Assembly: GCA_963662545.2 (NCBI GenBank)
Contig: CAXXLL010000003.1
Location: 1,376,001 to 1,440,000 of the forward strand
From: Gammaproteobacteria bacterium
Lineage (GTDB): Bacteria; Pseudomonadota; Gammaproteobacteria; Ga0077536
Reading direction: 5' to 3'
DNA length: 64,000 bases
A program made the translations under genes and the position numbers. Below the pieces are notes generated by a model that was not told the origin of the DNA, made no database searches, and saw only the letters and a program-made list of their open reading frames with translations. Positions 17,158 to 64,000 of the stretch are shown here, piece after piece (position 1 is the first letter of the stretch; every line of letters starts with the position of its first letter).

Positions 17158-17205
17158 GGATGCCCTAAATGAAATTCACCGGTAAGTTGGCGGTCAGCCC
17201 TGCTG

Positions 17206-43114: not shown

Positions 43115-43912
43115 GCCTCAACGGGAAAGAGTGCTAATGCAGGGAGAATCACATGACCACGACATTGCAATTACAGTCCACCGTTCGAGCCAACGGCAAC
43201 CTCGAAGTATCGATCGTGAACGTCGAGGTGCCCACGCCTGGAGCGGACGAGGTCATCGTTCGTATCGAAGCGGCACCGATCAATCCATCGGACCTGGGAT
43301 TGCTGTTCGGGCCTGCTGACATCAGCGCTGCGAGCACCGCCGAACGCGATGGGATGCCACTGCTTACCGCACCGATCCCAGCCGAACTGCAGGCCAGCGT
43401 AACCGCACGAGTAGAGAAGGCGCTACCCGTTGGCAACGAGGGCGCGGGAGTCGTGGTAGAAGCAGGTACGTCGGATGCGGCCCAAGCGCTGCTTGGCAAA
43501 ACCGTAGCCCTTTGGGGCGGGGCAATGTATGCCCAATATCGTTCTACCTCCGCGCTTAGCTGCTTACCGCTACCAGAAGGGATTTCGCCTCGCGACGGCG
43601 CGTCCTGCTTCGTCAATCCGCTGACCGCTTTGGGTATGGTTGCAACGATGAAGCTGGAGCATCACAGCGCGCTGGTACACACCGCCGCAGCCTCGAACCT
43701 CGGTCAAATGCTGAACAAATTGTGTCTCGCCGACGACGTACCCTTAGTCAATGTTGTGCGTAACCCTGCGCAGGCAGAAATACTGCATGGCATCGGCGCG
43801 AAATATGTGTGTAATTCATGAGACGACAACTTTATGGACGAGTTAACAGACGCCCTGGCGGAAACAAACGCCACATTAGCGTTTGACGCCATCGCAGGGG
43901 GATCATTAGCTA

Positions 43913-45609: not shown

Positions 45610-45615
45610 TAGCTA

Positions 45616-47305: not shown

Positions 47306-47311
47306 TAGCTA

Positions 47312-49008
47312 GTGTCCGTCCATAAACAGGCATTTTCTTCGATGGGCACGGAGAAATCGAGGTGTTGAAAGTAGGTTGTTGGAGCGGTAGCGGCGGTTCG
47401 GTGGGGGTCGAAGGGCTCTTCGAGCGTAATTGTGAGTACGTTCGCCGGCCGCAGAGCGCTGCAACCCAAAGTCGCCCGTTCGACGATATCGAGGAGGTCA
47501 GTTAGTGCGAGTGAACGTCGCTATTCGAGTTGATAGCGCGCGAGCAGGCTGAGGTTGTAGGCGACCACAGAAGACCACACGTAGGCTTCGAAGTGCGGCA
47601 GGCTCTTCCAGGTGCAACGTGCCAATCCGTATGCACGCTTCAGGCAGGAGATACCGGCCTCGATGCCGGCGCGGAAGTTGCGCAAGCGTCGATAGACCCA
47701 CTGACTCTTGACCATGTCGGCGATCGCGAGCCCGCGCTTCTTGTGGAAGGCAACGTCTTCGATGCCTTCTGCTTTCGCCGCCCGGAGATTGTCGAGGCTC
47801 GCATAGCCGCCATCGGCGGCGACCTGTCGTGGCATCGTCCCGTAGTGTGTTCGATGCCGTTCGAGCATCGGCATGAAGCGCTGACTATCGACCGGATTGC
47901 CTCGCTCGATGACCACGTCGAGGATGAGGCCACTGCGCCCCGAAGCCAGATTGATTTTGTGTCCGTACTGAACGTCGCGCGCACCCTTTATGATGATGTC
48001 GGTATGCGGCTCGAACAAGCTCACGCACTTCTCGCTCGCGGGGACCTTCTCACCGCCGAACACCCGCCGCTCAGTTTGCGAAATCACCTGCAGAACAAGT
48101 GTTTCGTAGTGCGCTACCTGCGCTAGCCAGTCCGGCAGTTCAACGCCGGTGACGCCCGGGCTCAGCAGCTGCTCACGTACCCTCGCTACCGCTTCCAAGG
48201 TTGAACGCGTCGCCCCAATCAAATCGCGATACAGACGTTGGCGTTGCTTCGCACCACGCGCATACCACAGCGCCCGCGCACGCTTCTTCGCCAATCGAGT
48301 GTGGTTCACGAAGCACAACTCCGGCGCGCCAGGCAACTCGCGCGCCTGTGCGAGCAGACGAACCACAACACGCACGCCATCCCACAGCAGATGACTGTCG
48401 CTCGGCGCGTGGATGGCACTGTCCGTTACCGTGCTATCAATCCGTACACGCTGTGCCGGCTCAATGCGCGTCTCTTTCGCCGTCGCCAGCAGGGCGCGAT
48501 GAATAGACTCCCACGTCGATACCTGGATCGCCGAGACCACCCGCTGTAAGGCAGACTTCTTCGGACGTTCATTACCCGGCAACCGGGCGAAGGCCTGAAA
48601 GCTCGCCGAGTCCTGCAGGTGAAAGGCCAGCTCCTCGTAACTCAATTGCCGGTGCTGCTTGAGCACCGCGCAGCGCAGCACCGACTCCGCCGACAGTCCG
48701 CGTCGACCGGTGGGCTTCAAACCCCGCCGACACAGATCGTTCATGACCGGCGTGAGGACCTTGGGGTGAGCATCGAGCCACTCGGACATGCCCTGCAGCT
48801 CTCGCCCCAGGTCATGGTCAGCAAACAGCTCGTATATACTCGCTTGGGCCGTGCGTTTCTGACGCATTCCCCCTCCTGTGGTGTCGATGATTGTGTGGAA
48901 AATCAGAGGTTTGAAGTTCCATTAGATCACGACCCACCGGAGGTTTCGATCCCTTAAGCGACAAATTTTCCTTTTTATTTCAACCGCATCGCGTTTAGGG
49001 ATGCACAC
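47312..49008 (-). mobile_element. ISNCY-type IS, copy 3
   Basis: Intact ends; followed by TAGCTA at 49009-49014. Confidence 0.85.
47521..48867 (-). CDS. DDE transposase, copy 3
   Basis: Same 448-aa translation as copy 1. Confidence 0.9.
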   Translation of the reverse strand: MRQKRTAQASIYELFADHDLGRELQGMSEWLDAHPKVLTPVMNDLCRRGLKPTGRRGLSAESVLRCAVLKQHRQLSYEELAFHLQDSASFQAFARLPGNERPKKSALQRVVSAIQVSTWESIHRALLATAKETRIEPAQRVRIDSTVTDSAIHAPSDSHLLWDGVRVVVRLLAQARELPGAPELCFVNHTRLAKKRARALWYARGAKQRQRLYRDLIGATRSTLEAVARVREQLLSPGVTGVELPDWLAQVAHYETLVLQVISQTERRVFGGEKVPASEKCVSLFEPHTDIIIKGARDVQYGHKINLASGRSGLILDVVIERGNPVDSQRFMPMLERHRTHYGTMPRQVAADGGYASLDNLRAAKAEGIEDVAFHKKRGLAIADMVKSQWVYRRLRNFRAGIEAGISCLKRAYGLARCTWKSLPHFEAYVWSSVVAYNLSLLARYQLE

Positions 49009-49381
49009 TAGCTAGCCAGATTCTGACTGCGATGGAGCGCGTGGCCGGGCGCGATTCGTCGCCGTCAAACCGTTACGGTTCGACCACGCACAAGCAAGTC
49101 TATCTGTATGGTGTACTCGATAGCTCTCCCACTGTGCTGAATCGAAGTTATGGTATGGCTTGGGGGGTCGGAGGCTGGCTGCTCCCAAATTTCCTCGCTC
49201 GAGTTGGCACCGAAAAGGGCGATGAACTTCGTCAACGCGTCGCAAGTGAGATCACCACCACCTTTGCGAGCCACTACACGCAGGTCATTTCGCTAGCGGA
49301 AGCGCTGCAGGTGCAGACTGCGCAACGTTATCAGCGCAAAGCCACCGGAGAGAAGTATTTGATCAATCCGAATAAGAACCC

Positions 49382-49414
49382 TTGACCAAGTCATCCTGCG
49401 ATGGCCTTGGTCAA
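49382..49414. terminator. Hairpin between convergent genes, possible terminator
   Basis: TTGACCAAGTCATC...GATGGCCTTGGTCAA inverted repeat; no clear U-tract. Confidence 0.4.
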
Positions 49415-49456
49415 AGGCCAAAGGGGACACCCATGATACTTTTTCAGGTCTCCTGC

Positions 49457-50242
49457 TTAATCCTGACGGGATAGAAAACCCAAAATGACGCGATTGAATG
49501 CTTCGGGTTTTTCGGCGTACCCGATGTGACCCACGCCGTCGATCAAATGGTACTCGGAGCCTTCGATGCGCTCGCTGAGCGCCTGACCTTTCTCCGGGGG
49601 AATGACGCGGTCTTCGCTACCCGAGACAACGATGGTGGGGCAACGAATTTGATGCACCCGGTCGGTCAAATCGAATACCGCCAGGGCGCCAGCGAGTACA
49701 TGCACGTATGGTTCAAGTTCGTTATCCGCGATCATTTCGCGCAACCATTCCTCCACGAACGGATCCGCCGGTTGTGCCAGGGCCTGTGATGCAACGAGCC
49801 CCGCGTATTTATCCATCGAGTCCTTTTTAAGCGCTTCCAACCGCTCGGTCATGACGTCCTCCGGAATACCGAGTTCGGATCCCGTATGGCAAAGCATCAC
49901 GCTGCGAACAAGATCCGGTGCTTTGAGCGCGATCGTCTGCGCGATGAAACCACCCATAGACACGCCGAGAAAATGGACCGCCGGGAGATCCAGCTCGCGG
50001 CAGACACCGATCACATCATCGGTCATCAATTCGATTGAATAGTCCTCGGCATTCGGCGGTTTACTGGAGCGACCGAAGCCGCGCAAATCGAGTGCGATCA
50101 CGTGATATCGCTCCGCAAAGGGTCGCACTTGATGGACCCATAAACTCGCATTCGCACCCAACCCGTGAATGAGCACCAGCGGTTCACCCTGCCCCCATTG
50201 CCTAACATTGAGGCCAACGTTTCCAATCTGCATTAAGGCCAT
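49457..50242 (-). CDS. Alpha/beta hydrolase (PcaD-like)
   Basis: IHGLG, DLRGFGRS, GVSMGG nucleophile elbow, GSEDRVIP, GVGH. Confidence 0.9.
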   Translation of the reverse strand: MALMQIGNVGLNVRQWGQGEPLVLIHGLGANASLWVHQVRPFAERYHVIALDLRGFGRSSKPPNAEDYSIELMTDDVIGVCRELDLPAVHFLGVSMGGFIAQTIALKAPDLVRSVMLCHTGSELGIPEDVMTERLEALKKDSMDKYAGLVASQALAQPADPFVEEWLREMIADNELEPYVHVLAGALAVFDLTDRVHQIRCPTIVVSGSEDRVIPPEKGQALSERIEGSEYHLIDGVGHIGYAEKPEAFNRVILGFLSRQD

Positions 50243-50311
50243 CGAAGGGATCTCCGATTAAATTACGGTAAGATTATATGCAGGTTGGATGCGCCAACCG
50301 CAGCTTGATGT

Positions 50312-50650
50312 CGATACACCCAACCACTGATAGCGCGCATACCACCGATAAAACGTCGGCCTCGATACGCCCAGCGTCGCCAGAGTTCGCCCAGCTGACA
50401 GATGCGACCGCTCGACCAAACGGATAATCTCAAGCTTCTCTGATACGGGAAGCCTCATTCTCGGTCGGCCCCATCCCTTAAGCCATGCTTTTTTTGAGCA
50501 GGCGGTTCTCCAGCAGCGTCTCGGCCAACGCCTCCTTCAAATCACCCGTCTCCCGGCGCAGGCTCCTGACCTCATCAGAGGTCGCTTCACGGGCCGTATC
50601 CCCGGACAACCGTTTCTTACCCGCTTCCAAAAACTCCTTCGACCCGCCTG
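50312..50650 (-). pseudogene. IS3-type transposase remnant (orfA tail and orfB start)
   Basis: SKEFLEAGKKRLSGDTAREATSDEV...ENRLLKK, then MRLPVSEKLEIIRLVE; both ends truncated; boundaries approximate. Confidence 0.75.
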
Positions 50651-50657
50651 CAACGAT

Positions 50658-50924
50658 TTAAGCCGTAATCACATAACCAATGACGCCGCTACTCTCTTTC
50701 GAGAAAATCACAGCCAATGCGTCAAACTCCAGATACCAGACGACAAAAAGTGAGACTACGGCGGCGATTGGCTCTTTGAGATCTTTGCCGTCAATCTTCT
50801 TGATTACCGGCTGCCACTCGAACGGAACAGCCAATGCCCTCTCTATAGCGAAAGAAAGAAACACAATGGCGCCGATCGCTTCCGCCGCGACGTCCGAATT
50901 AATTCCAAACATCATGGGATCCAT
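50658..50924 (-). CDS. Small membrane protein, possibly truncated
   Basis: Hydrophobic segments (FAIERAL motif); ends next to the IS remnant. Confidence 0.45.
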   Translation of the reverse strand: MDPMMFGINSDVAAEAIGAIVFLSFAIERALAVPFEWQPVIKKIDGKDLKEPIAAVVSLFVVWYLEFDALAVIFSKESSGVIGYVITA

Positions 50925-51626
50925 AGCTAAATCCTTTTGAGTGCCGTTAGTGAAGTTTGTTGAAACGTTTTCAGAGGCTGTCTGTTTATAATTCTCAGGG
51001 ACGGATGGTTAGAGATCGGAAATTGCTGAAGCATTCCGTAACCCTAGAAGGGCAGCGTTACTCTTTCCAGTTTGTAGCAAACTGGTCTAGAGGAAACTTG
51101 TATTTGAGCCCAATGTAGTATTGCAGCTCATCCTCTACCGAGTTTTCGATGCTGTTGTCGTCGGTCACGGTCCTTCCAAAGCCGACATAAGCGTCAAAGC
51201 TTATTGGCTCTAAGATTAGTCGGCGCGACCAATCTTTCGACTTGAGGGTTCCCCAAGCTGTGTTGGACTTCATGCTTCGGTATTTGTTTATCGCAGCCTG
51301 CCCACCAAACAGGAAATACAGGTCGCGAATGATTGGCTTGCCGAAATACCCGAATTTGACGCTGTAAGCCGTCTCGTCTTCATCAAGCTGTTCGGTGATA
51401 CCAGTGGCGCCCGCAATCTCACTTCCGGTGGTATTGGTCCAACCAAGGTCTCCCTTGAAGGCAGCACTTCCAAGCAGGACGTTCCATCCGAGATTCTCGA
51501 CATACTCCTTATCTCGGAGCTGACGTTTTTCCGAGTAAGTCAGCTTCGCCGGTGCATCGCTGGTTGAGTTTACTGATTGCGCGGCCGCATTGACTGTCGC
51601 TACGAAAGCCAAAGCGACCATAAATA

Positions 51627-53102
51627 GTCGTCCCTGAAAAAGCGCCCATATGATTGAAAAACTGAGGAACTTTGTCTCGAATGGTCGATCCGATCTTGCA
51701 AGGTATTGACAGTGTGGCGGTCAAAAGCTTGCAAAAAAGGAGGGGCGATGAAACCGAGAGAGACAGAGAAAAGCGATGTTGGGGATTTGTTCCGTGAGCG
51801 TCTTGAGAATCTGATCGATTGTCGGCATCCGCTGGCGAAGTTGTCGGAGGTGGTCGACTGGCCGGTGTTCGAGGAGGCGTTCGGTGCGTTGTATGACGCA
51901 GAGCAAGGGCGGCCTGGTGTCCCGATCCGATTGATGGTTGGGCTGCATTATTTGAAACACGCGTTTGACCGGTCAGACGAAGAAGTGGTGTTGGGCTGGG
52001 TCGAGAATCCGTACTGGCAGTATTTTTGTGGTGAGGAATATTTTCAACATCGGCTGCCAATCGATCCTTCACAGATGATGCGTTTTCGCCAGCGGATAGG
52101 TGAAGCGGGCTGCGCGTTGATGTTGAAGCAGACGGTGGCGGTGGGACTCAAGACGAAGACCATAACGCGGCGGTCGTTTGCAAGCGTGACGGTGGACACG
52201 ACGGTGCAGGAGAAAGCGGTGGCGTTTCCGACCGATGCACGCTTGTATCATAAGGCGCGGGTAGGGTTGGTCAGAGAGGCGCAGCGCTCGGGGGTGGCGT
52301 TGCGTCAGAGTTACGTGCGCGTGGGTAAGCGTGCCTTATTTATGCACAACCGCTATCTGGCGGCGCGGCAGAATCGACGGGGTCGTCGTCAATTGAGGAA
52401 GCTGAAGGTGTATTTAGGCCGGGTATTGCGGGATATTGATCGCAAGCTTCAGAGCGTGGCGCCGGCGCAGCGCGCGGCCTTGGAAGCCTTAATGCCGCCG
52501 GTCCGGCGGCTGTTGAAGCAAGGCCGCAAGGATCGCAACAAGCTCTACAGCATTCATGCGCCGGAAGTGGAGTGTCTGGCCAAAGGCAAGAGCCACAAAC
52601 GCTATGAGTTTGGCGTGAAGGTCAGTGTCGCGACCGGCACCAAGAATAATTTTGTATTTGGCATGCAGAGCCTGCCGGGTAATCCTTATGATGGCCATAC
52701 GTTGTGTGATGCGCTTGACCAAGTCGAACACATGACCGGTCGACGACCGGCGCATTGTTTTGTTGATCGCGGATACCGAGGTCACGATGAGACCGCTACG
52801 ACGGTCATCGTGGCGGGGCAGAAGCGTGGCATGACGCCCAGCTTGAAACGACAACTAAAACGTCGCAATGCGATCGAGCCCGTGATTGGCCATCTGAAAT
52901 CTGACGGTCGATTGGATCGAAATTACCTCAAGGGAACCCTCGGCGACAGCATGAATGCGCTGCTGGTCGGTGCCGGACACAACATCCGCCTGTTACTGCG
53001 CACGCTGAGGTTATATTTTGTGCCGTTCTTAGGCGCCTTTGACCCGCCCGACACGCCACGACCTTGCCGCGCTGCATGAAAACCGGGTTTTTCAGGGACG
53101 AC
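51627..53102 (+). mobile_element. IS5-family insertion sequence
   Basis: IR GTCGTCCCTGAAAAA / TTTTTCAGGGACGAC; 6-bp TAAATA duplication. Confidence 0.92.
51748..53079 (+). CDS. IS5 transposase
   Basis: ENPYWQYFCG, VDTTVQEK, KRYEFGVK, VDRGYRG, IEPVIGHLK. Confidence 0.93.
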   Translation: MKPRETEKSDVGDLFRERLENLIDCRHPLAKLSEVVDWPVFEEAFGALYDAEQGRPGVPIRLMVGLHYLKHAFDRSDEEVVLGWVENPYWQYFCGEEYFQHRLPIDPSQMMRFRQRIGEAGCALMLKQTVAVGLKTKTITRRSFASVTVDTTVQEKAVAFPTDARLYHKARVGLVREAQRSGVALRQSYVRVGKRALFMHNRYLAARQNRRGRRQLRKLKVYLGRVLRDIDRKLQSVAPAQRAALEALMPPVRRLLKQGRKDRNKLYSIHAPEVECLAKGKSHKRYEFGVKVSVATGTKNNFVFGMQSLPGNPYDGHTLCDALDQVEHMTGRRPAHCFVDRGYRGHDETATTVIVAGQKRGMTPSLKRQLKRRNAIEPVIGHLKSDGRLDRNYLKGTLGDSMNALLVGAGHNIRLLLRTLRLYFVPFLGAFDPPDTPRPCRAA

Positions 53103-53766
53103 TAAATAGTTGTTTGGGCATTTTGGTGTCTCCATGATTCTTCTTTCTCTATTCTTAGGGGGAAGACAGCCGAGCAGAAACAGGTCGCACCTAAAAGTGT
53201 GCTTAACTGGTGTCGGTTCTATTTGCGGTCCCAAAAGCAATTTTGGGCCAGAGCATCGCATGCTCCAAACTCGCCGTTATGCGAATCCCAAACCTGCGAT
53301 TCACTCCTCCCCTCCGTAAGTCCAGCAGAACTAGACCAGTGAGACTCAAAGCTACCTTTCTTAAACTCGGTATGTAAACCAAGATACATTACGACTCAAT
53401 TAAACGTACCCAAGATAGGTTAGAGCACGTCGTTAATGTAAAAGGCACACTCCTCATCACTGACGATGTACATAGCATGGCCGCAAATTTGGGGGAAAAG
53501 TCGGAGACTCCTGCTGGTACCGCCTAGAAAGTCCAATATTGGAAGGTCGTAGCAATTTAATTCCAAAATCCAATTTTAGAAATCGCAATCCACCCTATTT
53601 GGGGCAGATTGGTAAAACATCGCACGTACTACAAGTTGATTGGGACAACAGGACACAGCAGTGTTCGTGGTCGGTACAACGTAACCGGTCAATCCAGGCC
53701 GTTATTCACGGTCTCGGGCAGATGGTTTAGTTTGCCAGGTTTCCCAGTCAATCGGGAGCTTGGTAA

Positions 53767-54057
53767 ATGAATGATCACGGAAAACCTCGGAACAAACGAC
53801 GTAGTGCGGATGAGTGGCGTGGCCTATTAGCGGAGCAGGCACAAAGCGGTTCATCGATCCGCGCATTCTGTGCTGAGCGAGGAATTGGATATTCGACGTT
53901 CAGTAAAAGGAAGTCGAGGTCAGCGAGGGACGCTCAGATAGGGAAGGCGGAAACACGTTTCGTCGAGTTGGCCCCGTTACAACCATTAACCAATGCACAA
54001 TGGGATATCGAGTTAGCGCTCGGTGATGACATCGTGCTACGTGTGTCACGGCACTGA
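53767..54057 (+). CDS. tnpA: IS66 accessory protein TnpA
   Basis: SGSSIRAFC HTH; FVEL. Confidence 0.8.
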   Translation: MNDHGKPRNKRRSADEWRGLLAEQAQSGSSIRAFCAERGIGYSTFSKRKSRSARDAQIGKAETRFVELAPLQPLTNAQWDIELALGDDIVLRVSRH

Positions 54058-54425
54058 TGTGGTCGCCCCCATCGGGTTTGCGTATATGGTTATGTCGGGC
54101 ACCGACTGATATGCGTCAATCGTTCCATGGTTTATCGGCGTTGGTGCGGCAGGCGTTACACGAGGAGCCCCTCGATGGGGCACTGTACGTTTTCATCAAT
54201 CGCCGGCGTACGTTATTAAAAGCGCTGTACTTTGAGTCGGACGGATATTGTCTGTGGAGTAAGAAACTCGAACGCGGTCAGTTCCAGGTTCGGTGGAATA
54301 GCGAGGTCAAACAGCGGCTGCAACGCAGCGAATGGCAGTGCATTATTGAAGGGATCGATCTACGCTCAGTGCGTCGATTAAAACGGTTTCGATTACCGGA
54401 AAACGATCGACGGTCAGCAGTGTAA
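54057..54425 (+). CDS. tnpB: IS66 accessory protein TnpB
   Basis: PTDMRQSFHGL, YVFINRR, KKLERG. Confidence 0.9.
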   Translation: MWSPPSGLRIWLCRAPTDMRQSFHGLSALVRQALHEEPLDGALYVFINRRRTLLKALYFESDGYCLWSKKLERGQFQVRWNSEVKQRLQRSEWQCIIEGIDLRSVRRLKRFRLPENDRRSAV

Positions 54426-54443
54426 ACGGTACAATACGTACCC

Positions 54444-56027
54444 ATGAATGGGGGTTATGCAACGCCGGAAATATCACTTGATGCGGCGGTGTTACAAGCG
54501 GAAAACACAGCCCTCAAAACGCAGGTCGCCACACTCACCCAACAACTCGACTGGTTCAAACGCCAACTGTTCGGTCGCAAGTCTGAACGGCGGCTGATTG
54601 ATCCCAATCCCGATCAACGGTTACTCAATGGCTTCGAGGATGAGTCGTCATCGACGGCGGCGGTTGAGAAAGAAACGATCACTTATCAGCGGCGCAAAGG
54701 AAAGCGCCGTGGCGATGATTGTGTGACTGATCAAGGGTTACGTTTCGATGACTCGGTGCCGATTGAATGCATCCAATTGTCGGTACCTGAAGATGTCGCG
54801 GATGCGTTTGAAGCGAGCAGTGAAAAGATCACCTATCGTTTAGCGCAACGGCCGGCGGCCTATGTGGTCTTGAAGTACATCCAACCGGTAGTGAAGCGCA
54901 AAAGCGACGGTCAGATCTTCACGATCCCGGCGCCCGATGGTCTGTGGTCCGGCTCATTGGCGGATGTGAGTGTGGTTGCGGGGATGCTGGTTGATAAGTT
55001 CGCTTATCACCTGCCGCTGTACCGTCAACATCAACGAATGGGGCTGAACGGCATTACCGTGGCGCGGTCGAGTCTGACGCACTGGGTGCAGAAGGCAAGT
55101 GACCTGTTGAAGCCGATTTATCTGGCGCAGTTGCGGCATATCTTGTTATCGAAGACGCTGGCGATGGATGAAACGCCGATTAAGGCGGGTCGCTCGGGCA
55201 AGGGCAAGATGAACGCGGCGTGGTATTGGCCAATTTATGGCGAAGCGGATGAGATTGCGTTCACGTTTGCGCGAACCAAGGCGCGGTCGCACATCGACAA
55301 AACGTTGGTGGACTTTAAAGGCACCTTACTAACCGATGGCGCCGCGGCTTATGCGCGTTTTGCCGCCGATCGCGGCGATGAAGTCGTGCATGCGCAATGC
55401 TGGGCGCACACGCGTCGTCAGTTCGAAAGGGCATTATCCGATAGGCCACAAAGTGCGGCGCAGGCACTTGATTTGATCGCGGCACTGTATGCCGTTGAGG
55501 CCACCATCCGTGACCAGGCAATGGATGAAGCGGCGACCCAGACCTACCGCAGCCGGTACGCCTTGCCTGCGGTTGATGCATTTTTTGCCTGGCTTGACGA
55601 GCAACGCCAGTGCATGGGTTTATTACCGAGTCAGCCGTTTACGAAGGCGCTGGCCTATGCAGCCGAGCGTGAGGGCGCGTTACGTGTTTACTTATCGGAT
55701 GCGAGCGTCGCGATCGACACGAATCATTTAGAGCGCGCTCTGAGACCCATTCCGATGGGCCGAAAGAATTGGATGTTCTGTTGGACTGAGGTGGGCGCTG
55801 AACACGTTGGGATCATACAAAGTTTGATCTGTACTTGCCGAATACACGGCATTAATCCGTACACCTACCTGGTTGATGTACTCCAGAGGATCGCGATCCA
55901 TCCGGATAGCGCAGTGGAACAACTCACGCCTCGGGTGTGGAAGACATTGTTCGCTACCCAACCGCTGCGTTCTAACTTGGCCGTCGTTACCGCAACACGA
56001 GATCAATTACCAGACGCCGCCGTTTGA
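54444..56027 (+). CDS. tnpC: IS66 transposase TnpC
   Basis: HLPLYRQ, MDET, QCWAHTRR, IDTNHLERALR, GRKNW. Confidence 0.93.
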   Translation: MNGGYATPEISLDAAVLQAENTALKTQVATLTQQLDWFKRQLFGRKSERRLIDPNPDQRLLNGFEDESSSTAAVEKETITYQRRKGKRRGDDCVTDQGLRFDDSVPIECIQLSVPEDVADAFEASSEKITYRLAQRPAAYVVLKYIQPVVKRKSDGQIFTIPAPDGLWSGSLADVSVVAGMLVDKFAYHLPLYRQHQRMGLNGITVARSSLTHWVQKASDLLKPIYLAQLRHILLSKTLAMDETPIKAGRSGKGKMNAAWYWPIYGEADEIAFTFARTKARSHIDKTLVDFKGTLLTDGAAAYARFAADRGDEVVHAQCWAHTRRQFERALSDRPQSAAQALDLIAALYAVEATIRDQAMDEAATQTYRSRYALPAVDAFFAWLDEQRQCMGLLPSQPFTKALAYAAEREGALRVYLSDASVAIDTNHLERALRPIPMGRKNWMFCWTEVGAEHVGIIQSLICTCRIHGINPYTYLVDVLQRIAIHPDSAVEQLTPRVWKTLFATQPLRSNLAVVTATRDQLPDAAV

Positions 56028-56073
56028 CCGGTTACGGTACAACAAACCACTAACACTCAAAGGAGAGAACAAC

Positions 56074-57316
56074 TGACCTAGCCCGGATTTCCTGGTCCAG
56101 CTTTAAAGTGATAAATAAGCTGAACACAGGAGAACCGAACCATGCCTTCGAAACGATATAACACTGAGGAAATCATACACAAGCTACGAGAAGCCGATGT
56201 TCTTCTCAGCCAGGGTAGGACCACCGGTGAGGTATGCAAGCAGCTCGGGGTGTCAGAGCAAACGTACTATCGGTGGCGCAAGCTGTATGGCGGCATGAAG
56301 GTGGACCAGGCGAAGCGCCTGAAGACGCTGGAAGTAGAAAATGCGCGGCTGAGGCGAGCGATCGCCGGCCTGACGGTAGACAAGCGGATCCTCAAAGAGG
56401 TGGCTGAGGGAAACTACTGAGCCCGGCGCGGCGGCGGCGGGCGGTGTCACAAGTGCAATCGACTCTGGGTGTCTCGGAGCGCCGGGTGTGCCGAGCATTG
56501 GGCGTATCGCGTTCCTCTGTCCGATATACACGGCAGCCCCGCTCCGACGAGTCGTTGCTGACGCGTTCCATCGTTCGTCTGGCCGGGCAGTATGGCCGCT
56601 ATGGATATCGTCGGGTTCATGCCTTGCTCGAATCGGAAGGATAGCAGCTGAGTCACGGGCGGGTGATGCGGATCTGGCGACGTGAGGGCCTGAAAGTGCC
56701 GGCAAAACAGCCGAAGCGTGGTCGGCTGTGGCTGAACGATGGGTCGTGCATGCGGCTTCGTCCTGAGCATCGCAGCCACGTGTGGTCGTGGGATTTTGTG
56801 TTTATCCGGACCGATGACGGACGGTCGGTGAAACTGATGGTGGTGATTGACGAGTTCACGCGTGAGTGCCTGGCTATCCATGTTGCCCGACGTATTCGGG
56901 CCGGCGACGCGCTTGAGGTCTTTGCCGACCTTATGACCCGGCCCGGGATTCCTGAGCACATCCGCTCCGATAATGGTCCGGAGATGGTGGCTAAAGTCCT
57001 TCGGCGGTGGTTGAAGCGATTGGGCACCGAGACGATTTACATCACGCCAGGGAGCCCGTGGGAGAACAGATACTGTGAGTCGTTTAACGGCAAACTCCGG
57101 GACGAATTACTGAATGGGGAAATCTTCTACACGCTGAAAGAAGCCCAGGTCGTCATCGAATCCTAGCGCCGGTACTACAACACGGTACGACCGCACAGTG
57201 CACTCGGATACCGTCCTCCGGCACCAGAAACCACAACCAGAGACAACAACTTAGCAACGATAGGAAAGGCCGCTTAGACTAACTCTCAAACTGGACCAGT
57301 TTTTACGGGCAGGTCA
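56074..57316 (+). mobile_element. IS3-family element, decayed
   Basis: TG...CA ends with imperfect IR (TGACCTAGCCCG...CTGGTCCAG / CTGGACCAG...CGGGCAGGTCA); no target duplication seen. Confidence 0.88.
56142..57277 (+). pseudogene. IS3 orfAB transposase with GGGAAAC shift site and two in-frame TAG stops
   Basis: orfA 56142-56420; orfB YGYRR, WSWDF, SDNGPE, ESFNGKLRDE; TAG at 56642 and 57164. Confidence 0.85.
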
Positions 57317-57639
57317 GCTTGTGAATTGACTTCCGTACGGCCAGCGACAATGCCTATTTCTACGCACTTTAGCTCTTCCTTTCACGCGTGATTACTCGGA
57401 GAGTGGGCTTTGTTTTTCGTGTATACCACTTAGCCATTTTCTTGAAGAAGTCTTGGCGAACCCAACACACGGAAACCCTCCTATTTTTCGCAGCAATACT
57501 TGGTTTACTTGTCATTCCTTCGCGAAGCCCTGCGACATATTGGCATCAGTCTCAGACCGCAATTTAGCACCCAATATGGAGACCGTTATGATGCGCGGCT
57601 TTCGAGCCCCGACGTTTCCGTAATATTATGGGTACGGAT

Positions 57640-58449
57640 TCAAGATTTGAATAACGTCGGAAATATTTCAGGATCTGCGTAATCAGGCTGTCCATCAACG
57701 GTCCTACGGCACAAGAGATCGTTAATATGGCCACCATCGCCTGAATATTCATATCTATTGTCTGCATCCTGCAGATGTATTGCGTAACCGTATCTACATT
57801 TTTCTGATAAGTTATTGAAACTACCATGAACTAATTTGCAGTGATGAAAACTGACTTGTCCCCGGCGCATTCGCAGCACAATCCGATTCGGAAAGTAGCC
57901 GCAGTTTTTGAAGCTGTCCTCTATCTTGTTCAGATCTTGCTCGTCGAATGTGTGCATATCGAATAAGAATGGCCATTCGTGGCTTCCATCCCAAACTACC
58001 ATGGCGCCATTGCTCTCATCGACATCCCTAAGTGGCACCCACGCCGATAACATCCGCGAAGACGAACAAGTCTTCCAATATGCTTTATCGGTATGCCACC
58101 CGATGACCGATGGCCTGTCTTTTACATATGGATATTTCATGATCAGTTGATCGTGAAACAAGCGAATCGAATTAGTTCTCGCTAATCGAGACGCCATGAT
58201 GGCAATTGGGGCCGAGTGTACAAATGCTTGTACTTCCTCAAGCTGTAACGATAAATAATCACTTTGAACAACGCCGCGAACTTCCTTATTAAGAAATGAA
58301 TCACTAATTGGAAGTTGCCAATCCCTCTCGCCGGCCGCGTACCGCGATATCCCGTTTTCAAGTAATGCTAGACGATCATCATCTATTACATGATCGCTCA
58401 CCCACCAACCGTGTTCTTCGTAGAACTCTACGTCTTTACTCTTGATCAA
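57640..58449 (-). CDS. PhyH-family Fe(II)/2-oxoglutarate dioxygenase
   Basis: RLFHDQL, GWHTD (HxD), AWVPL, GSH, FHH...HGS, distal Arg. Confidence 0.9.
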   Translation of the reverse strand: MIKSKDVEFYEEHGWWVSDHVIDDDRLALLENGISRYAAGERDWQLPISDSFLNKEVRGVVQSDYLSLQLEEVQAFVHSAPIAIMASRLARTNSIRLFHDQLIMKYPYVKDRPSVIGWHTDKAYWKTCSSSRMLSAWVPLRDVDESNGAMVVWDGSHEWPFLFDMHTFDEQDLNKIEDSFKNCGYFPNRIVLRMRRGQVSFHHCKLVHGSFNNLSEKCRYGYAIHLQDADNRYEYSGDGGHINDLLCRRTVDGQPDYADPEIFPTLFKS

Positions 58450-58465
58450 TGTGCTAGCTCACTGA

Positions 58466-59755
58466 TTACGAAAGAGGAAGAGTTACGGGGCTTAATGCAT
58501 CAACAACCGGGGCAGAAGGGGCCATCAATGATCCTGCCCAACACTGGCTGTATTCTAAATAGGTACTCGATTTCCTTTCGTAACGAGCTATTACTTCATC
58601 TTGTAGTTCCGACGCGATATCGCTTATAGATTGTTCCGCAAAAACGGTTAAGGAACCTTCGTCCTTGCTTTCTCGCCAAAAGAAAGAAAGCCGACCACAA
58701 GAGGGCGTGTGCGCTTCCAATGGATCGCGCTGAAGTTGCTTCCTAGTGGATAACAATTTCGTACTAAGGCCAGCTAATTCAAAGTCTTCTAACGGATGGT
58801 GGTCACCAACAACGAAAATTGCTGGGTCAACTTCACCGCTTGCACCAAGCTGGCGACACAACAGTGCTTTTTGCTCATGGTACAGCGCACGCCTTGACAG
58901 CGACGATATAAGTGCGCTCGATATATTTTGTTGAGATCCATCAAAATTTCTTAGCGGAATTAGCGTTCCCCGGAAGTACGCTCCTCCAGCTTTTAATTCC
59001 GTTGCAGACGTTCGTCCAAGCGACGTAGTGCCAATTATTAGGTCATTGAGTCCAAATCTATCGCAGATTACGGAAGCCACTGTGCGTAAGATATTCATGA
59101 ATACAGTTACTCGGTTTCTTTTCGCGTCGCCGCGAATACGTTCCACAGTCCTTCGTGCGAGAACGCGGCGTCGGCTTAATGTGATATTTGGCAACTGAGA
59201 AGTCCTTGCAAACGGATCTACAAAAGCAGGCTTGACTTCGCATAAGGTTTCCTGCAATCGCTCAAGATCAGAAGAAGATGATTCCACGGGCTTAGGACAA
59301 TAGGATTTTTGCGGTTCGTATACTTCGTTACGTTCGCTCGATTCCAAATTTCTTGAGTAAGATTCAGAAATACATTTACTATACAGGGGAATCGACCAGC
59401 CATCAGCTATAGAGTGATGGAACGTTAAAAGTAAGAGCGCTCGGAACCTCCCTAAAAAGACAATCCGATATCGGAAATATTGGCCCCGCGAAACGGCGAG
59501 CGGCGTTAACCTCTCCTCGAGCACTCGCGCCTCTAGTGGACATGCAGTTCTTTCAAGATCACGTTCGTCGAAATGTTCGCATAGCGGCTCGTCAACGGCT
59601 CCTACTCCCTGATAACGACTCGTTAGCTCATTAATTGCTTCGCTGAATGCTTTAACTTCGAAGTGACCGTCTAGTCCAATCGCGTACGAAAGGTTTAGTA
59701 CGGACGGATCACGACAGGCTCGATGATATTGCATTAAAAATTCTTGAGTGCTCAC
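58466..59755 (-). CDS. Stand-alone NRPS condensation-domain protein
   Basis: HHSIADGWS catalytic motif; overlaps the NRPS stop codon. Confidence 0.8.
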   Translation of the reverse strand: MSTQEFLMQYHRACRDPSVLNLSYAIGLDGHFEVKAFSEAINELTSRYQGVGAVDEPLCEHFDERDLERTACPLEARVLEERLTPLAVSRGQYFRYRIVFLGRFRALLLLTFHHSIADGWSIPLYSKCISESYSRNLESSERNEVYEPQKSYCPKPVESSSSDLERLQETLCEVKPAFVDPFARTSQLPNITLSRRRVLARRTVERIRGDAKRNRVTVFMNILRTVASVICDRFGLNDLIIGTTSLGRTSATELKAGGAYFRGTLIPLRNFDGSQQNISSALISSLSRRALYHEQKALLCRQLGASGEVDPAIFVVGDHHPLEDFELAGLSTKLLSTRKQLQRDPLEAHTPSCGRLSFFWRESKDEGSLTVFAEQSISDIASELQDEVIARYERKSSTYLEYSQCWAGSLMAPSAPVVDALSPVTLPLS

Positions 59756-62700
59756 AGACGTACCGCATAGGTGTAGTAGACGCTAGTACCTGTGTGAATA
59801 TTCTCCTGCGTTCTTTGAACGTGATATCCCAAAGTGGATAGGCGCTCTTCGATTTCGCAATTGCGTGAACATCTATGCTCTATTACGAGCTGCCGAATTA
59901 TCGGCCAATGCTCCTGCTGGACGCCGTCAATAATCTGGATTGCGCCTTCGTTAACGTCGATCTTTAATAAGTCTATACACTCAAGGTCAAAGTCTGATAT
60001 CACGTCCGACAATGACGTAACATCACAAAAGATTTTTTCCTTCAGTAGTCTCTCGTCAATTAGCTTATCCATCTGCGATCTTGGTATGTCATCCGTTACT
60101 CCCAGAGCACGAGAAATCACCGCACTAAGCAATTCTCGATCGCTGCTCGTGCTAGACATAAGTGAAGACATTCCGCTTAATCTGGGATAGTAATCGAGCT
60201 CTGCACGACCTGAGAAATCCGAAATCGCGCTCTCTATCATTTTCGCGCGTCCCGCGAATTCATTGAGATTGTGCCTAAATGACTCGGCTAACATTGGACA
60301 TGGTTCGAAGGCGACAACTCGAGACGCTTCGTACGACGAGAGTACGAAATAGGAAAATAGGCCAATATTAGCGCCGACATCTAGGACGGTCGCATTGTTC
60401 GGAAGCGTAATCCCATTTTGGAGATAGACATTTCGGACGAATATCTCATCGTAATAATGTCTAGCTTCTGCTGAATTCATCGCTTCTACTCGAATCCCAT
60501 TAGGCATTTCAAGTACAGAGAGAGATGCTCCAAAATCGTTCTCGTTGGCCGCTGCTCTAACACCAGCACCCCCGTGTATGGAATTTTCTACTTCTTTAAT
60601 GAAGTCGCGTAGAGTCGTTCCTCCGAGAAGGTGTTCTAGCGGCAAACTTATACCGAAACATTCATTTACTTGGGAGAGCACCTGAATAGCCGAAAGTGAA
60701 TGACCACCCATTTCAAGAAAATCGTTGTCAACCGATATATCGTCGGCATGCAAGAATCTTAGCCATATCGTTTTAATCTGAGCCTCAAGATCATCAGAGG
60801 AATTGGAAATTTGTGTTTTTACTTTAGCGCTTAGGAGTCGCTGTCGATCAATTTTCCCGTTCGCGTTTAGCGGTATCTCTTCAACAACTTTGATTGCGCC
60901 AAGCCCGGGAATCATATGAGCTGGTAGATTTTCCGCAAGAAACTCCCGTAGCCGACGTGCATTCAGTTCCGTTTTCTTTCCTTGAACTATTAAAGAAATA
61001 AACGGTCCTCCTGGCCCGCCCTGCTCTATATGTGCCGCAGTTAACTCAACGGAGGCGAACATCGCCGCGTGGGCTTCTATGTCACCAAGCTCTATACGGT
61101 ACCCGCGCAATTTTACTTGTCTATCCCGTCTCCCTATAAACTCAATCTGGCCATCGTGTGCTAACTTGCCCACGTCTCCGGTCCGATAACAAGTCGAATC
61201 CCGATGTTCAACGTAGAGGTTCGTACAGAATCCACCATCGTCGTGATCACCTAAATTTACGTACCTACCGTTAGCTATGGTGCCTCCAATAACTATTTCA
61301 CCGGCTACTCCAATAGGACATCTGCGACCCGCTGCATCGATAATATAGACAACCGCGTTATCGATTGGCTGCCCAATCGAAGGTTTTCGATTCCAACGAA
61401 GTGGCGATCCCTCAAGTTGATGGGAAGTGGCGACATGCGTCTCTGTCGGGCCATATTGGTTGATTAAATTAGCCTTCACATGTCGGAAAAATCGAATAAT
61501 CGCAGGCGATATCACTAACGCTTCACCGGCCACAATTACTTCTTCCAGATTAGTCAACGGCGTGTCACGTTCATCAAATATCTCCGATATTTGAGTAAGC
61601 GTAACAGGTGGCACAAAGATTCGCGTAATGTTCTTAGAATCGATCAATTTTATTAAGTCCGTTACGTTCGACCTTTCTTTTTCCGATGCGACGATAAGAG
61701 TCCCGCCGAAGCATAACGTCGAGAATATTTCTTGAAACCCCACATCGAATGCTAGAGACGAGCGGTATAAACTACGTCGCCCGCAATCGCCGGACATTGA
61801 GTTTTGCCAGTAAACAAGGTTAGTTAACGTCGAATTTCGAATCTCTACAGCTTTTGGAATCCCTGTTGATCCAGAAGTAAATAGTACGTATGCGACACCA
61901 TTTATACCTATAACGTCTGCTGGGAAGGATGGCTCGCCACTAGCCGGTAGCTTGTCCAAGTAAATTGATTGTATCCCTGGAAAATCAACCCCATCCAAAG
62001 AATCATCGCATACCAGTTTGGTAAGATTTATTGCCTTAAAAATAGCTTTCAATCGGAAAACTGGAAAAGTCCAATCGACTGGAACCGGTGTTGCCCCAAC
62101 TCGTAATATGGCGATGAGTATCTCTATTTGTTTGAAACTAGGTCTGACAGAAAGCCCAACACAATCACCTGTACGAATACCTACGGATTTAAGGTTCGAA
62201 GCAATCCGCGTGGCGCTTTCATTGAGTTCGCGATATGTGTAAAGATACCCGCCGTCTTCTATCGCTATATGATTAGGGTTAAAATACGCGAATTCTGAAA
62301 ATAGCGCGTATACTGATCCAATCAAATATTCTGGCTTTACGCGTCCAGACCCTGTGTCGTTTAAGTGTCGCAGCTCAGCATCTCCCAAAAACTCTATCTC
62401 GCCAATCGATGCATGCGGGTTGGTTTTCAGAAGTTTCAGATAGCATTCAACATGGCTTAAAAATGACGTAGCTACACTCTCATCGATTAGGTGCTTGTCA
62501 TAAGCGCACAAAAGCTGCAGCGTATCGGTTGAGTAACATAAGTACACATCATAGAAAATCTCTGGTAGCTTATATTCCTCTGTATCTAATATACCTACGA
62601 GAACCGAAAAATGCCGTTGCGATTGATCCCCATATATGCGATCGCCAACAACTTCGTGCTCACTTGAATTCTGGACCTCATTGAGCACCTGGGCGATCGT

Positions 62701-62985
62701 ATTCGAAAGGCGCACGGAGAATTTTTGGGCTACGATAACGTCGTCAGCCAACTGAACTCCTAAAGTCAAAATATCCTCTAGGGCATAGCCTCTTAGAACA
62801 CATAGAGCGCCTGCGCATAATTCAACTAAGCCCAAGTTATCGAGGCTCTCATTGACTTCGATATTCCTTGCGACCTTTGCGATCTGAGGTGAACGAATCT
62901 TGGAACGCGACGCTCGTAATGGGAGGGACGAAATTTCGTCGAACGAGATCCCATTCATCGCAACACCTTTTTCGATCTTCGACAT
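59752..62985 (-). CDS. NRPS-like protein: C-domain remnant, adenylation, PCP, FkbM-family methyltransferase
   Basis: TSGSTGIPK, FDVG, NQYGPTE, YRTGD, QVKLRGYRIELG, NGKIDR; PCP GGHSL; DEIF...VLDVGANIG...LLKIDV. Confidence 0.9.
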   Translation of the reverse strand: MSKIEKGVAMNGISFDEISSLPLRASRSKIRSPQIAKVARNIEVNESLDNLGLVELCAGALCVLRGYALEDILTLGVQLADDVIVAQKFSVRLSNTIAQVLNEVQNSSEHEVVGDRIYGDQSQRHFSVLVGILDTEEYKLPEIFYDVYLCYSTDTLQLLCAYDKHLIDESVATSFLSHVECYLKLLKTNPHASIGEIEFLGDAELRHLNDTGSGRVKPEYLIGSVYALFSEFAYFNPNHIAIEDGGYLYTYRELNESATRIASNLKSVGIRTGDCVGLSVRPSFKQIEILIAILRVGATPVPVDWTFPVFRLKAIFKAINLTKLVCDDSLDGVDFPGIQSIYLDKLPASGEPSFPADVIGINGVAYVLFTSGSTGIPKAVEIRNSTLTNLVYWQNSMSGDCGRRSLYRSSLAFDVGFQEIFSTLCFGGTLIVASEKERSNVTDLIKLIDSKNITRIFVPPVTLTQISEIFDERDTPLTNLEEVIVAGEALVISPAIIRFFRHVKANLINQYGPTETHVATSHQLEGSPLRWNRKPSIGQPIDNAVVYIIDAAGRRCPIGVAGEIVIGGTIANGRYVNLGDHDDGGFCTNLYVEHRDSTCYRTGDVGKLAHDGQIEFIGRRDRQVKLRGYRIELGDIEAHAAMFASVELTAAHIEQGGPGGPFISLIVQGKKTELNARRLREFLAENLPAHMIPGLGAIKVVEEIPLNANGKIDRQRLLSAKVKTQISNSSDDLEAQIKTIWLRFLHADDISVDNDFLEMGGHSLSAIQVLSQVNECFGISLPLEHLLGGTTLRDFIKEVENSIHGGAGVRAAANENDFGASLSVLEMPNGIRVEAMNSAEARHYYDEIFVRNVYLQNGITLPNNATVLDVGANIGLFSYFVLSSYEASRVVAFEPCPMLAESFRHNLNEFAGRAKMIESAISDFSGRAELDYYPRLSGMSSLMSSTSSDRELLSAVISRALGVTDDIPRSQMDKLIDERLLKEKIFCDVTSLSDVISDFDLECIDLLKIDVNEGAIQIIDGVQQEHWPIIRQLVIEHRCSRNCEIEERLSTLGYHVQRTQENIHTGTSVYYTYAVRL

Positions 62986-62991
62986 ATATTC

Positions 62992-63849
62992 TTATATCGA
63001 GCCAAGTTTGGGCCACAAAACTGGACAAATTTCTGGATCAGAATAATCAGGCGCCCCAGAAGCATCAGGCTTGCACAGGACATCATTCACGTGCGAGTAA
63101 ATCTTCCCGCGCTCGTCTTGAGCGCGCTTATATTTGTTATCGCCATCCTGGACATGCACCGTTAGTGCCACTCTAGTATTTTTTTCGACGTTTTCTCCGC
63201 TTCCGTGAATTAGGGACGCATGATGAAAACTAACTTGCCCAGGATCAATTAGTATCTCGACTACCTCTAGATCCTCGCCATCTGATTTAACCCGCTTAAT
63301 TATTTCGTTGAGATTGCGATGTCCGAACGTTCGCATCCATTCATTGCCGGCCCAACGATGACTTCGAGGAATAACGAGAAGCGGTCCCATTCCACTGGAA
63401 TATCGATTAAGCGGAATCCACGCAGTCATCATTTGCTGTGAGCTACACGTCTGCCAATACGCTTTATCGACGTGCCAACCAACTACTGGTCCACAATTAC
63501 CGTCTTTGCAAATAAGCTGATCATGGAAAAGCCGTATGATCTTCGCTCCCAAGAGGGCTGCAAAGGCGCGGCCTAGGGAGGGGTAGGTAACCAGATCATT
63601 TATCTCTTTACACTGAAGGGAAGCGTAGTCGTTTATCCTTAAGCCCTCAGGGTGTTCGGGGCGCCAGTCCAAGAAACCTGCGGAAACAGGCATCATCCAA
63701 TCCCCTTCGCCAGCGTAGATGCGTTCGGCTCCATACAGAGCCGCTTCAATTAGGGTAGAAGGGAGAAATGGGGGGCTTATTACGTAACCATAATTCTCAA
63801 AGTGCTGGATATCGTCTGCTGACGGAAAGGTAATCGAGTGTTGAAACAT
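62992..63849 (-). CDS. PhyH-family Fe(II)/2-oxoglutarate dioxygenase
   Basis: RLFHDQL, GWHVD (HxD), AWIPL, FHH...HGS; paralog of 57640-58449. Confidence 0.9.
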   Translation of the reverse strand: MFQHSITFPSADDIQHFENYGYVISPPFLPSTLIEAALYGAERIYAGEGDWMMPVSAGFLDWRPEHPEGLRINDYASLQCKEINDLVTYPSLGRAFAALLGAKIIRLFHDQLICKDGNCGPVVGWHVDKAYWQTCSSQQMMTAWIPLNRYSSGMGPLLVIPRSHRWAGNEWMRTFGHRNLNEIIKRVKSDGEDLEVVEILIDPGQVSFHHASLIHGSGENVEKNTRVALTVHVQDGDNKYKRAQDERGKIYSHVNDVLCKPDASGAPDYSDPEICPVLWPKLGSI

Positions 63850-64000
63850 GACCTATTTGGAGTATTAGTGTTTTCGGATGTTAATAGTCGGTATCTGATA
63901 AAGCCATCGTTCACCAGTAGGCGAATGAAGATAACGAATTCGCGATTAAACTATCACTGATTGTGACGAAATGGCAGATGCTTCCTGTGGATGATGTAAT

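Follow-up and report, generated by a model that had tools for sequence, protein, structure and literature searches.

Does a compact group of four genes, whose only synthetase lacks a release domain, encode a complete biosynthetic pathway, and if so, which kind of molecule might it make? This question is raised by positions 57640-63849 of a 64,000-nucleotide stretch of contig CAXXLL010000003.1 from a gammaproteobacterial assembly (hereafter the window), where four co-oriented minus-strand genes encode a PhyH-family dioxygenase, a single-module non-ribosomal peptide synthetase (NRPS) with a remnant condensation (C) domain, an adenylation (A) domain, a peptidyl carrier protein (PCP) domain and an FkbM-type methyltransferase domain, a stand-alone condensation protein, and a second PhyH-family dioxygenase. 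We consider it about an even chance (probability roughly 0.5) that this cassette stands on its own as a horizontally acquired pathway, based on a carrier protein, to a small modified derivative of proline. The reading builds on the domain content, the intact motifs, the conservation of the cassette and a proline-like specificity code, from which the product, the identity of the substrate, each chemical step and its order, the choice between O- and N-methylation, and the acceptor are predicted.

Organization of the locus

The features of the locus are as follows.

63850..64000, minus strand: upstream region of 40% G+C, containing the operon promoter or else the final 29 codons of another gene in the same orientation
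62992..63849, minus strand: PhyH-1, Fe(II)/2-oxoglutarate dioxygenase, 285 aa (Pfam PF05721, E 1e-22)
59752..62985, minus strand: single-module synthetase, 1077 aa, or 1068 aa if begun at the ATG at 62958 (Pfam domains; 22-row family alignment)
62296..62985, minus strand: N-terminal ~230 residues of the synthetase, C-lobe remnant of a condensation domain (PF00668 matches of relatives)
60826..62295, minus strand: adenylation domain (AMP-binding, residues 231-569, E 7.5e-56; core motifs)
60595..60780, minus strand: PCP domain with GGHSL (PP-binding, residues 736-797, E 1.1e-13)
59875..60381, minus strand: FkbM-type (Methyltransf_21) methyltransferase domain, after the PCP (PF05050, residues 869-1037, E 3.4e-09)
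58466..59755, minus strand: stand-alone condensation protein, 429 aa, GTG start (PF00668, E 1.2e-09)
57640..58449, minus strand: PhyH-2, Fe(II)/2-oxoglutarate dioxygenase, divergent paralog of PhyH-1, 269 aa, TTG start (PF05721, E 3e-21)
57167..57639: spacer between PhyH-2 and a broken IS3 element, left edge of the low-G+C island

The coordinates and spacing of the four genes given in an earlier, sequence-only reading of the window were reproduced, with intergenic gaps of 6, -4 and 16 bp when the starts of the longest open reading frames (ORFs) are used and with the GTG start of the condensation protein overlapping the stop of the synthetase gene by 4 bp. The synthetase may start at the ATG at 62958 rather than at the start of the longest ORF, as this ATG has a better ribosome-binding site (AAGGTG, 7 nt upstream) and agrees with the 1068-aa database form of the protein (P0001); the first gap would then be 33 bp. 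The Pfam matches of all four proteins lie above the gathering scores. The four ORFs are full length relative to their own families and retain all catalytic motifs, and no decay of these genes was apparent.

The G+C content is 0.461 in 57167-64000 compared with 0.595 in 1-40000, dropping from ~0.59 to ~0.47 across 56900-57300, and a stretch of insertion sequence (IS) elements extending from an ISL3 to an IS3 element adjoins the cassette, in line with the earlier description of AT-richer DNA lying beyond a run of IS elements. Base composition and the IS flank are best explained by horizontal acquisition of the four-gene DNA from a foreign source. A minus-strand frame of 29 codons (63911-64000) is open to the window end, with its stop 61 bp before PhyH-1, and may represent the 3' end of a fifth gene in the same orientation, its length being by rough estimate not above chance in AT-rich DNA. 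No Rfam family match was obtained in the upstream region 63850-64000, the tRNA scan found no tRNA, no PADLOC model matched, and sigma-70-like sites numbered 4, compared with 11.1 in shuffles.

Domains of the synthetase

Alignment of the synthetase with 21 relatives extends along the entire protein. Its adenylation core motifs A3, A7, A8 and A10 (FTSGSTGIPK, YRTGD, GRRDRQVKLRGYRIELGDIE and NGKIDR) are all present, and the specificity code begins with the Asp that binds the alpha-amino group and ends with the Lys of A10, as in NRPS adenylation domains that activate amino acids. The match to TIGR01733 (306.8 bits) is slightly below the cut-off of 317.4, and no curated NCBIfam equivalog reached its cut-off for the cassette proteins. 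In the PCP domain, GGHSL occupies residues 760-764, and the attachment serine S763 is found in all 43 rows of the family alignment. The FkbM domain (37.5 bits, cut-off 22.7) has the S-adenosylmethionine (SAM)-binding motif DVGANIG, of which D869, G871 and G875 are likewise present in 43 of 43 rows. The Pfam order AMP-binding, PP-binding, Methyltransf_21 bears out the earlier observation that the module closes in an FkbM-type domain, not in a thioesterase (TE) or reductase (R) domain. The classical activity of FkbM enzymes is O-methylation of a hydroxyl.

The N-terminal remnant, a feature missing from the earlier description, has no HHxxxDG motif. Three relatives (P0022, P0028 and P0042) match PF00668 positions ~189-456 in this region, while the window synthetase's own match is weak (E 0.062, positions 399-455). 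Kinship between this remnant and the free condensation protein was considered and rejected, profile-profile comparison having found nothing (probability 0.1).

Specificity code of the adenylation domain

Canonical proline codes have His at the seventh position. The code positions were set by motif following the GrsA-PheA numbering, and were cross-checked on HMMER alignments to LgrA. The ten-residue code of the window synthetase is DVQFIAQVAK, which is found exactly in 19 of the 43 family rows, while the pattern DVQ[F/Y]x[A/S][Q/H]V[A/V/I]K fits all 43; the seventh position is Gln in 42 rows and His in one. Listed proline codes include DVQY[V/I]AHVVK, DVQFVSQVMK and DVQFVAQVVK, the last two being those of the telomycin synthetase Tem22 (table of PMC9113097). 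DVQFVAQVVK, which is the exact code of one family member (P0036), is the nearest published proline code to that of the window synthetase among those in this table, with 8 of 10 positions equal when placed by the PheA numbering.

A proline-type substrate is thus the best prediction for this adenylation domain, and the class of amino acid, which the sequence-only reading had left general, can be narrowed to this type on the evidence of the code. Telomycin contains cis-3- and trans-3-hydroxyproline, and its producer may hydroxylate free L-proline (excerpt of PMC5144071); by analogy, the Gln variant shared with the Tem22 codes may mark hydroxyproline selection. The exact code DVQFIAQVAK was not found in the open PubMed Central and bioRxiv full text. 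Piperazate was considered as a substrate and rejected, its codes being of the DVFSVAxYAK type in the parts of PMC3943440 and PMC11007384 available.

The PhyH-family dioxygenases

As had been proposed, the two PhyH proteins that bracket the synthetase and condensation genes are paralogous (37% identity over 272 columns). Both match the PhyH family profile and have an HxD...H triad and a 2-oxoglutarate-binding Arg: H126-x-D128, H215 and R226 of PhyH-1 are invariant in a 47-row family alignment, and in PhyH-2, with H119-x-D121, H208 and R219, the triad columns are retained. The halogenases SyrB2 and CmaB, which belong to the same Pfam family and act on aminoacyl-S-carrier substrates, have this carboxylate ligand replaced by Ala or Gly. 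Since both window proteins keep the Asp (WHVD and WHTD) and so differ from the SyrB2 type, both are predicted to be hydroxylases. PhyH-2 has a weak partial match to the 'chlorinating enzyme' model TIGR01762 (E 0.0037).

The AlphaFold2 (AF2) model of PhyH-1 has the expected fold at a mean predicted local distance difference test (pLDDT) score of 92.6, and its fold neighbours, matched at probability 1.00, include MysH, SnoN/SnoK, human PhyH, the proline hydroxylase H11, EctD and GriE, enzymes whose substrates are small molecules in free form or a CoA thioester. H11 (PDB 7e00-7e09, 8h7t-8h85), EctD and GriE are PhyH-fold hydroxylases of cyclic or aliphatic amino acids with template modelling (TM) scores of ~0.6-0.67 to PhyH-1; they share 16-20% identity with it, act on free substrates and are not known to be tied to an NRPS module. 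By sequence, human phytanoyl-CoA hydroxylase, whose substrate is a pantetheine thioester, scores best among PDB entries against PhyH-1 (E 1e-9), and PhyH-2 matches H11 (E 4e-4).

In an IQ-TREE phylogeny of 47 rows PhyH-2 groups with P0361 and P0382 (split support 96/87), on a long branch, so that its placement carries some risk. Each of these two proteins is the second PhyH copy of its contig; the corresponding first copies (P0341 and P0370) pair up across the split, and one of the two contigs also has a family synthetase (P0028). Two PhyH paralogs of a Solirubrobacteraceae metagenome-assembled genome (MAG), HEV2999108 and HEV2999111, have accessions n and n+3, the spacing of PhyH-1 and PhyH-2 here, and fall on the same two sides of the tree. 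Among the 120 PhyH relatives listed, none is closer to PhyH-2 than to PhyH-1. Judging from the tree split and the accession spacing, the arrangement of two PhyH genes around the other two is probably an ancient one, and this favours two separate oxidation steps.

The stand-alone condensation protein

The separate protein with an intact HHxxxDG motif that had been noted earlier matches PF00668 at 37.8 bits (cut-off 30.6) and carries HHSIADG at residues 113-119 (nucleotides 59399-59419). Its alignment with 11 stand-alone relatives (430-453 aa) spans the full length of the proteins, and H113, H114 and D118 are invariant in the 12 rows. Its AF2 model (mean pLDDT 85.6) has the full fold of a condensation domain, with TM scores of ~0.6-0.7 over the whole length to DhbF, CmnI, Txo2 and SgcC5; the two-lobed chloramphenicol-acetyltransferase-like fold and the HHxxxDG motif that characterise condensation domains are thus both present.

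This protein is the rarest part of the cassette. Among its best 150 matches from 1.84 billion representatives, 11 are full-length stand-alone relatives at 25-33% identity, and the remainder are domains within megasynthases (22-37%), or a fragment. The best PDB sequence match is Txo1 (E 1.7e-6), the condensation domains of AmbE and AmbB are among its sequence and fold matches, and an atlas look-up returned generic condensation-domain clusters only. A protein of 283 aa from a contig of 13,011 bases (P0121) is 100% identical over residues 81-360 of the window protein, with a Met start at Val80 (GTG), and ends there.

Conservation of the cassette across phyla

Co-location of the genes in relatives was deduced from equal-sized source contigs and from accession numbers; accession order was taken as gene order, which is usual practice and is treated here as an inference. 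Among the 119 non-self synthetase matches listed, 42 carry the same A-PCP-FkbM content, and for 16 of these 42 the source contig is equal in size to that of a PhyH relative. The ten stand-alone condensation relatives that were looked up come from contigs equal in size to that of a synthetase relative in six cases and to that of a PhyH relative in eight. In an Edaphobacter MAG the PhyH (MDW5265514), synthetase (MDW5265515) and condensation protein (MDW5265516) have consecutive accessions in the order found in the window. In Mesorhizobium sp. B1-1-1 (TPN63597/TPN63598) and an Acidobacteriota MAG (MDQ3803384/MDQ3803385) the synthetase and PhyH are neighbours by accession number, and in Rhodospirillum sp. 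A1_3_36 the condensation and PhyH accessions are two apart. A FastTree phylogeny of 43 synthetases placed the window protein in a clade of 15 rows containing every synthetase whose contig also has a free condensation protein. The combination of PhyH, A-PCP-FkbM synthetase and stand-alone condensation protein is therefore judged to be a conserved unit, as far as contig sizes and accessions indicate, in Acidobacteriota, Alphaproteobacteria and other phyla.

The best non-self relatives, all generically named, are 43% (synthetase), 59% (PhyH) and 33% (condensation protein) identical. For PhyH-1, 238 relatives were found at E <= 0.001, the value of 59% being that of the best one not near-identical; a 99%-identical PhyH-1 (P0271) is present in another record. 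In the plasmid collection, no DNA match was obtained for 57000-64000, no record covered 80% of the synthetase in tblastn, and the five matches to PhyH-1 were at 31-36% identity, the two contexts examined being unrelated. A scan of the genome collection with the family alignment, in which the generic adenylation peptides NQYGPTET and TSGSTGxPK figured, gave 74 loci with ordinary NRPS genes; the FkbM-region profile was strong in only one of them (L036, where the domain interrupts an A domain inside a megasynthase) and weak in one other (L073).

Proposed pathway

In the pathway we favour, the A domain would activate L-proline or a hydroxyproline and load it onto S763 of the PCP. The two HxD-type PhyH enzymes would then oxidise one or two positions of the pyrrolidine ring, with a slight preference on our part for action while the substrate is on the carrier, and the FkbM domain behind the PCP would use SAM to methylate the tethered intermediate, most likely on the new hydroxyl, with oxygen rather than nitrogen as the most likely target atom. 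The presence of H11, EctD and GriE among the fold neighbours of PhyH-1 counts in favour of the oxidation step, and the occurrence of FkbM-type domains near Fe(II)/2-oxoglutarate oxygenases in other NRPS modules, namely those of the Streptomyces plasmid loci described below, counts in favour of oxidation combined with methylation. As the synthetase has no TE or R domain, release is assigned to the free condensation protein, which would pass the acyl moiety on to an external nucleophile, an amine or possibly an alcohol, for which no gene is in view. The sequence-only reading had proposed a pathway to a hydroxylated and O-methylated amino-acid amide; gene content, domain order and motifs support its logic of carrier-bound tailoring with release by a free condensation protein, and the amide, the amine acceptor, O-methylation and on-carrier hydroxylation stay at the level of prediction.

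Several observations weigh against this pathway. The window shows neither an acceptor-amine gene nor genes for transport, regulation or a phosphopantetheinyl transferase. The host may be a poor setting for such chemistry: Fe(II)/2-oxoglutarate dioxygenases require O2, and genes at 8402-17745 encode QrcB/QrcC-like and DsrO/DsrP-like subunits, a QrcA-like multihaem cytochrome and RnfC, and these Qrc-like, DsrO/P-like and Rnf genes suggest that the host is anaerobic and possibly a sulfate reducer, an odd setting for the cassette, since dioxygenases that depend on O2 may rarely function there. No carrier-dependent enzyme of the SyrB2 type is named among the top 50 fold neighbours of PhyH-1, which include enzymes acting on free molecules or a CoA thioester, so that hydroxylation before loading is about as likely as hydroxylation on the carrier. 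The condensation protein is so distant from studied condensation domains that its chemistry and acceptor are not readable from kinship, and the truncated P0121 may reflect a sister copy that is disrupted or has a premature stop, or a partial gene call. The specificity code depends on positions placed by motif from PheA numbering, and two of its ten residues depart from the closest proline code in print; the co-location in relatives derives from contig sizes and accession numbers and not from DNA. O-methylation is not assured, because the FkbM family includes an N-methyltransferase, EreM (available part of PMC9811515).

Alternative explanations

The point at which hydroxylation occurs is where an alternative has most to offer. 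The PhyH enzymes might hydroxylate free L-proline first, after which the A domain would select hydroxyproline, and methylation and transfer alone would take place on the carrier; we regard this as possible, though rather less than probable. The short distance (6 or 33 bp) from the PhyH-1 gene to its synthetase neighbour and the retention of this pairing across phyla fit a partnership between the two proteins, without proving it, and the best PDB match of PhyH-1, with its thioester substrate, also speaks for a tethered substrate. On the other hand, the H11 entries hold L-proline or hydroxyproline, the GriE and EctD entries L-leucine and 5-hydroxyectoine, and the top 50 neighbours of PhyH-1 include no carrier-dependent PhyH-type enzyme. 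The Gln at the seventh code position in 42 of 43 rows is shared with the Tem22 codes (excerpt of PMC9113097), which belong to a peptide with 3-hydroxyprolines whose producer may hydroxylate free L-proline (excerpt of PMC5144071). A different objection concerns completeness: the cassette could be a building-block sub-cluster whose free condensation protein hands a tailored prolyl unit to a carrier or scaffold of a larger NRPS or polyketide synthase beyond position 64000 or elsewhere. The window ends 151 bp upstream of PhyH-1, where the 29-codon same-strand frame is still open, the accessions of synthetase and PhyH in Spirosoma areae differ by 8, suggesting a larger locus there, free condensation enzymes such as SgcC5 (rank 20 among the fold neighbours) are known to graft carrier-tailored amino acids onto a scaffold, and in the Streptomyces plasmid loci the FkbM-bearing module lies inside a larger NRPS cluster. 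We nevertheless consider it unlikely, because PhyH, synthetase and condensation protein recur compactly in distant phyla, including on a contig of 10.5 kb, because the Streptomyces loci have another domain order and an A domain without the alpha-amino-binding Asp and are hence analogues and not relatives of the cassette, and, as weaker evidence, because no second synthetase from the same contigs occurs among the 120 matches listed.

It is more doubtful still that the cassette rides along, silent or in decay, in an IS-rich island and has no product in this host. It adjoins five kinds of IS element, some of them broken, the truncated P0121 points to a possibly disrupted copy of the condensation gene in another assembly, the host genes suggest anaerobic respiration while the dioxygenases need O2, and sigma-70-like sites are scarcer than in shuffles (4 and 11.1); these points are offset by four full-length ORFs in the window with every catalytic motif kept, by the preserved gene overlap and short gaps, and by the 99%-identical PhyH-1 (P0271) in another record. 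A regulon of the Pseudomonas syringae hrp type was also considered and rejected, as no GGAACC-type box was seen by eye in 63850-64000 and the host genes do not fit. Finally, as a distinctly long shot, the free condensation protein might join two tailored prolyl-S-PCP units from two synthetase molecules, and the prolyl-prolyl thioester might release itself as a hydroxylated or methoxylated proline diketopiperazine, with no outside acceptor, in which case the trio of PhyH, synthetase and condensation protein would be a minimal but complete assembly line of a novel type; such self-release would explain the absence of a TE or R domain. Were this true, the spread of the cassette in Acidobacteriota, Alphaproteobacteria, Bacteroidota and Actinomycetota would imply a widespread unrecognised family of proline-derived metabolites, perhaps signals.

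Comparison with characterised systems

The carrier-protein pathway proposed here has a close parallel in logic in the SgcC branch of C-1027 biosynthesis (SgcC1, SgcC2, SgcC3, SgcC and SgcC5), in which a beta-tyrosine on a carrier is tailored by separate oxidative enzymes and transferred to the enediyne core by a free condensation enzyme. Both have a carrier-loaded amino acid, separate oxidative tailoring, transfer by a free-standing condensation enzyme and no thioesterase. In the SgcC branch, however, the A, PCP and tailoring functions are separate, whereas the cassette has a fused A-PCP-methyltransferase and PhyH-type oxygenases, and the SgcC5 structure (4znm; rank 20, TM ~0.65, 13% identity to the condensation protein) is no closer than ordinary condensation domains. 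VibH (PDB 1l5a), the stand-alone amide synthase of vibriobactin, accepts a diffusible amine and is, as a free condensation-domain protein, the model for release implied by the sequence-only reading. It shows no significant sequence kinship with the window protein (E 0.28), which belongs to a small clade of its own, so that the likeness is one of logic only.

The AMB (methoxyvinylglycine) genes ambB-E of Pseudomonas aeruginosa use glutamate, TauD-type oxygenases, two synthetases, several carriers and a thioesterase. Like the cassette, this is a small NRPS system with two Fe(II)/2-oxoglutarate oxygenases and a methyltransferase domain within a synthetase, and the AMB product is a small oxidised, O-methylated amino acid; by contrast, the cassette has a single module, PhyH-type oxygenases, an FkbM domain that follows the PCP and a code of the proline type. 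NRPS modules in which an FkbM-type or other O-methyltransferase interrupts the A domain share methylation in cis of a carrier-bound residue, but there AMP-binding_C is split and the FkbM domain precedes the PCP, whereas in the window family it is C-terminal, behind the PCP. Modules for O-methyl-serine have the order C-A-MT-T (available part of PMC11007384).

Two Streptomyces plasmids, NZ_CP108308.1 (L075, 6681-11939) and CP109208.1 (L076, 6681-11945), encode a TauD protein followed by A[FkbM]-PCP and C-PCP, within a larger NRPS cluster. They were rejected as relatives of the cassette, since the A domain is interrupted and without the alpha-amino-binding Asp, and are kept as an analogy; lacking this Asp, their A domain may activate a substrate other than an amino acid.

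The cassette architecture had been described in the sequence-only reading as unrecognised. No characterised counterpart was found in the full-text literature (open PubMed Central and bioRxiv), nor is the architecture the subject of the FkbM and adenylation papers PMC9811515, PMC7196800 and PMC11832590, but it is not a one-off, as the A-PCP-FkbM fusion is widespread and recurs with the same PhyH and condensation families. Every enzyme family and the general logic are already known; what is new is that these parts occur in a fixed combination, with an FkbM domain placed where a release domain would be expected, a code of the proline type and a divergent clade of free condensation proteins. If the proposed pathway holds, the cassette is a compact route of three to four genes to an oxidised, methylated proline unit, with an unusual domain order in which a methyltransferase takes the place where a TE, R or C domain normally sits, and with a deeply divergent free condensation clade conserved across several phyla. 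It would bear on the role of C-terminal FkbM domains acting on a carrier, on PhyH hydroxylases of carrier-bound amino acids and on release without a TE or R domain. Being small, it lends itself to expression and to in vitro reconstitution and is a sound target for genome mining, while it remains one orphan cluster among very many, wholly made up of known enzyme families.

Genomic setting

The region to the left of the cassette (41012-57277) consists of 16 kb of mostly mobile elements, interspersed with short or cut genes, and includes the following.

41012-42091: ISL3
42463-42807: NIPSNAP protein
43153-43821: MDR-type oxidoreductase fragment, 222 aa
43904-48911: three ISNCY copies, head-to-tail (extent in the family scan 44122-48867)
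49457-50242: PcaD-like hydrolase
51706-53079: IS5
53767-56027: IS66 tnpA/B/C
56142-57166: broken, frameshifted IS3, with the transposase tail (RPHSALGY motif) continuing to ~57277 in another frame

Gene remnants other than the IS3 tail were not seen in the spacer 57167-57639. The ISNCY copies are spaced 1696 and 1703 bp apart, with identical family-scan scores for their transposases and 300-nt stretches that are 100% alike, and their nearest plasmid-borne relatives, in Sinorhizobium, are ~76% identical. Such tandem triplication of an IS element is unusual and suggests either very recent activity or an effect of assembly.

A protein of 668 aa encoded at 28880-30886 matches HpaB-type oxygenase components over its C-terminal 470 residues and has an extra N-terminus of ~185 residues, and a nearby gene at 22965-25328 encodes a molybdenum hydroxylase large subunit of the CO-dehydrogenase/4-hydroxybenzoyl-CoA-reductase kind.

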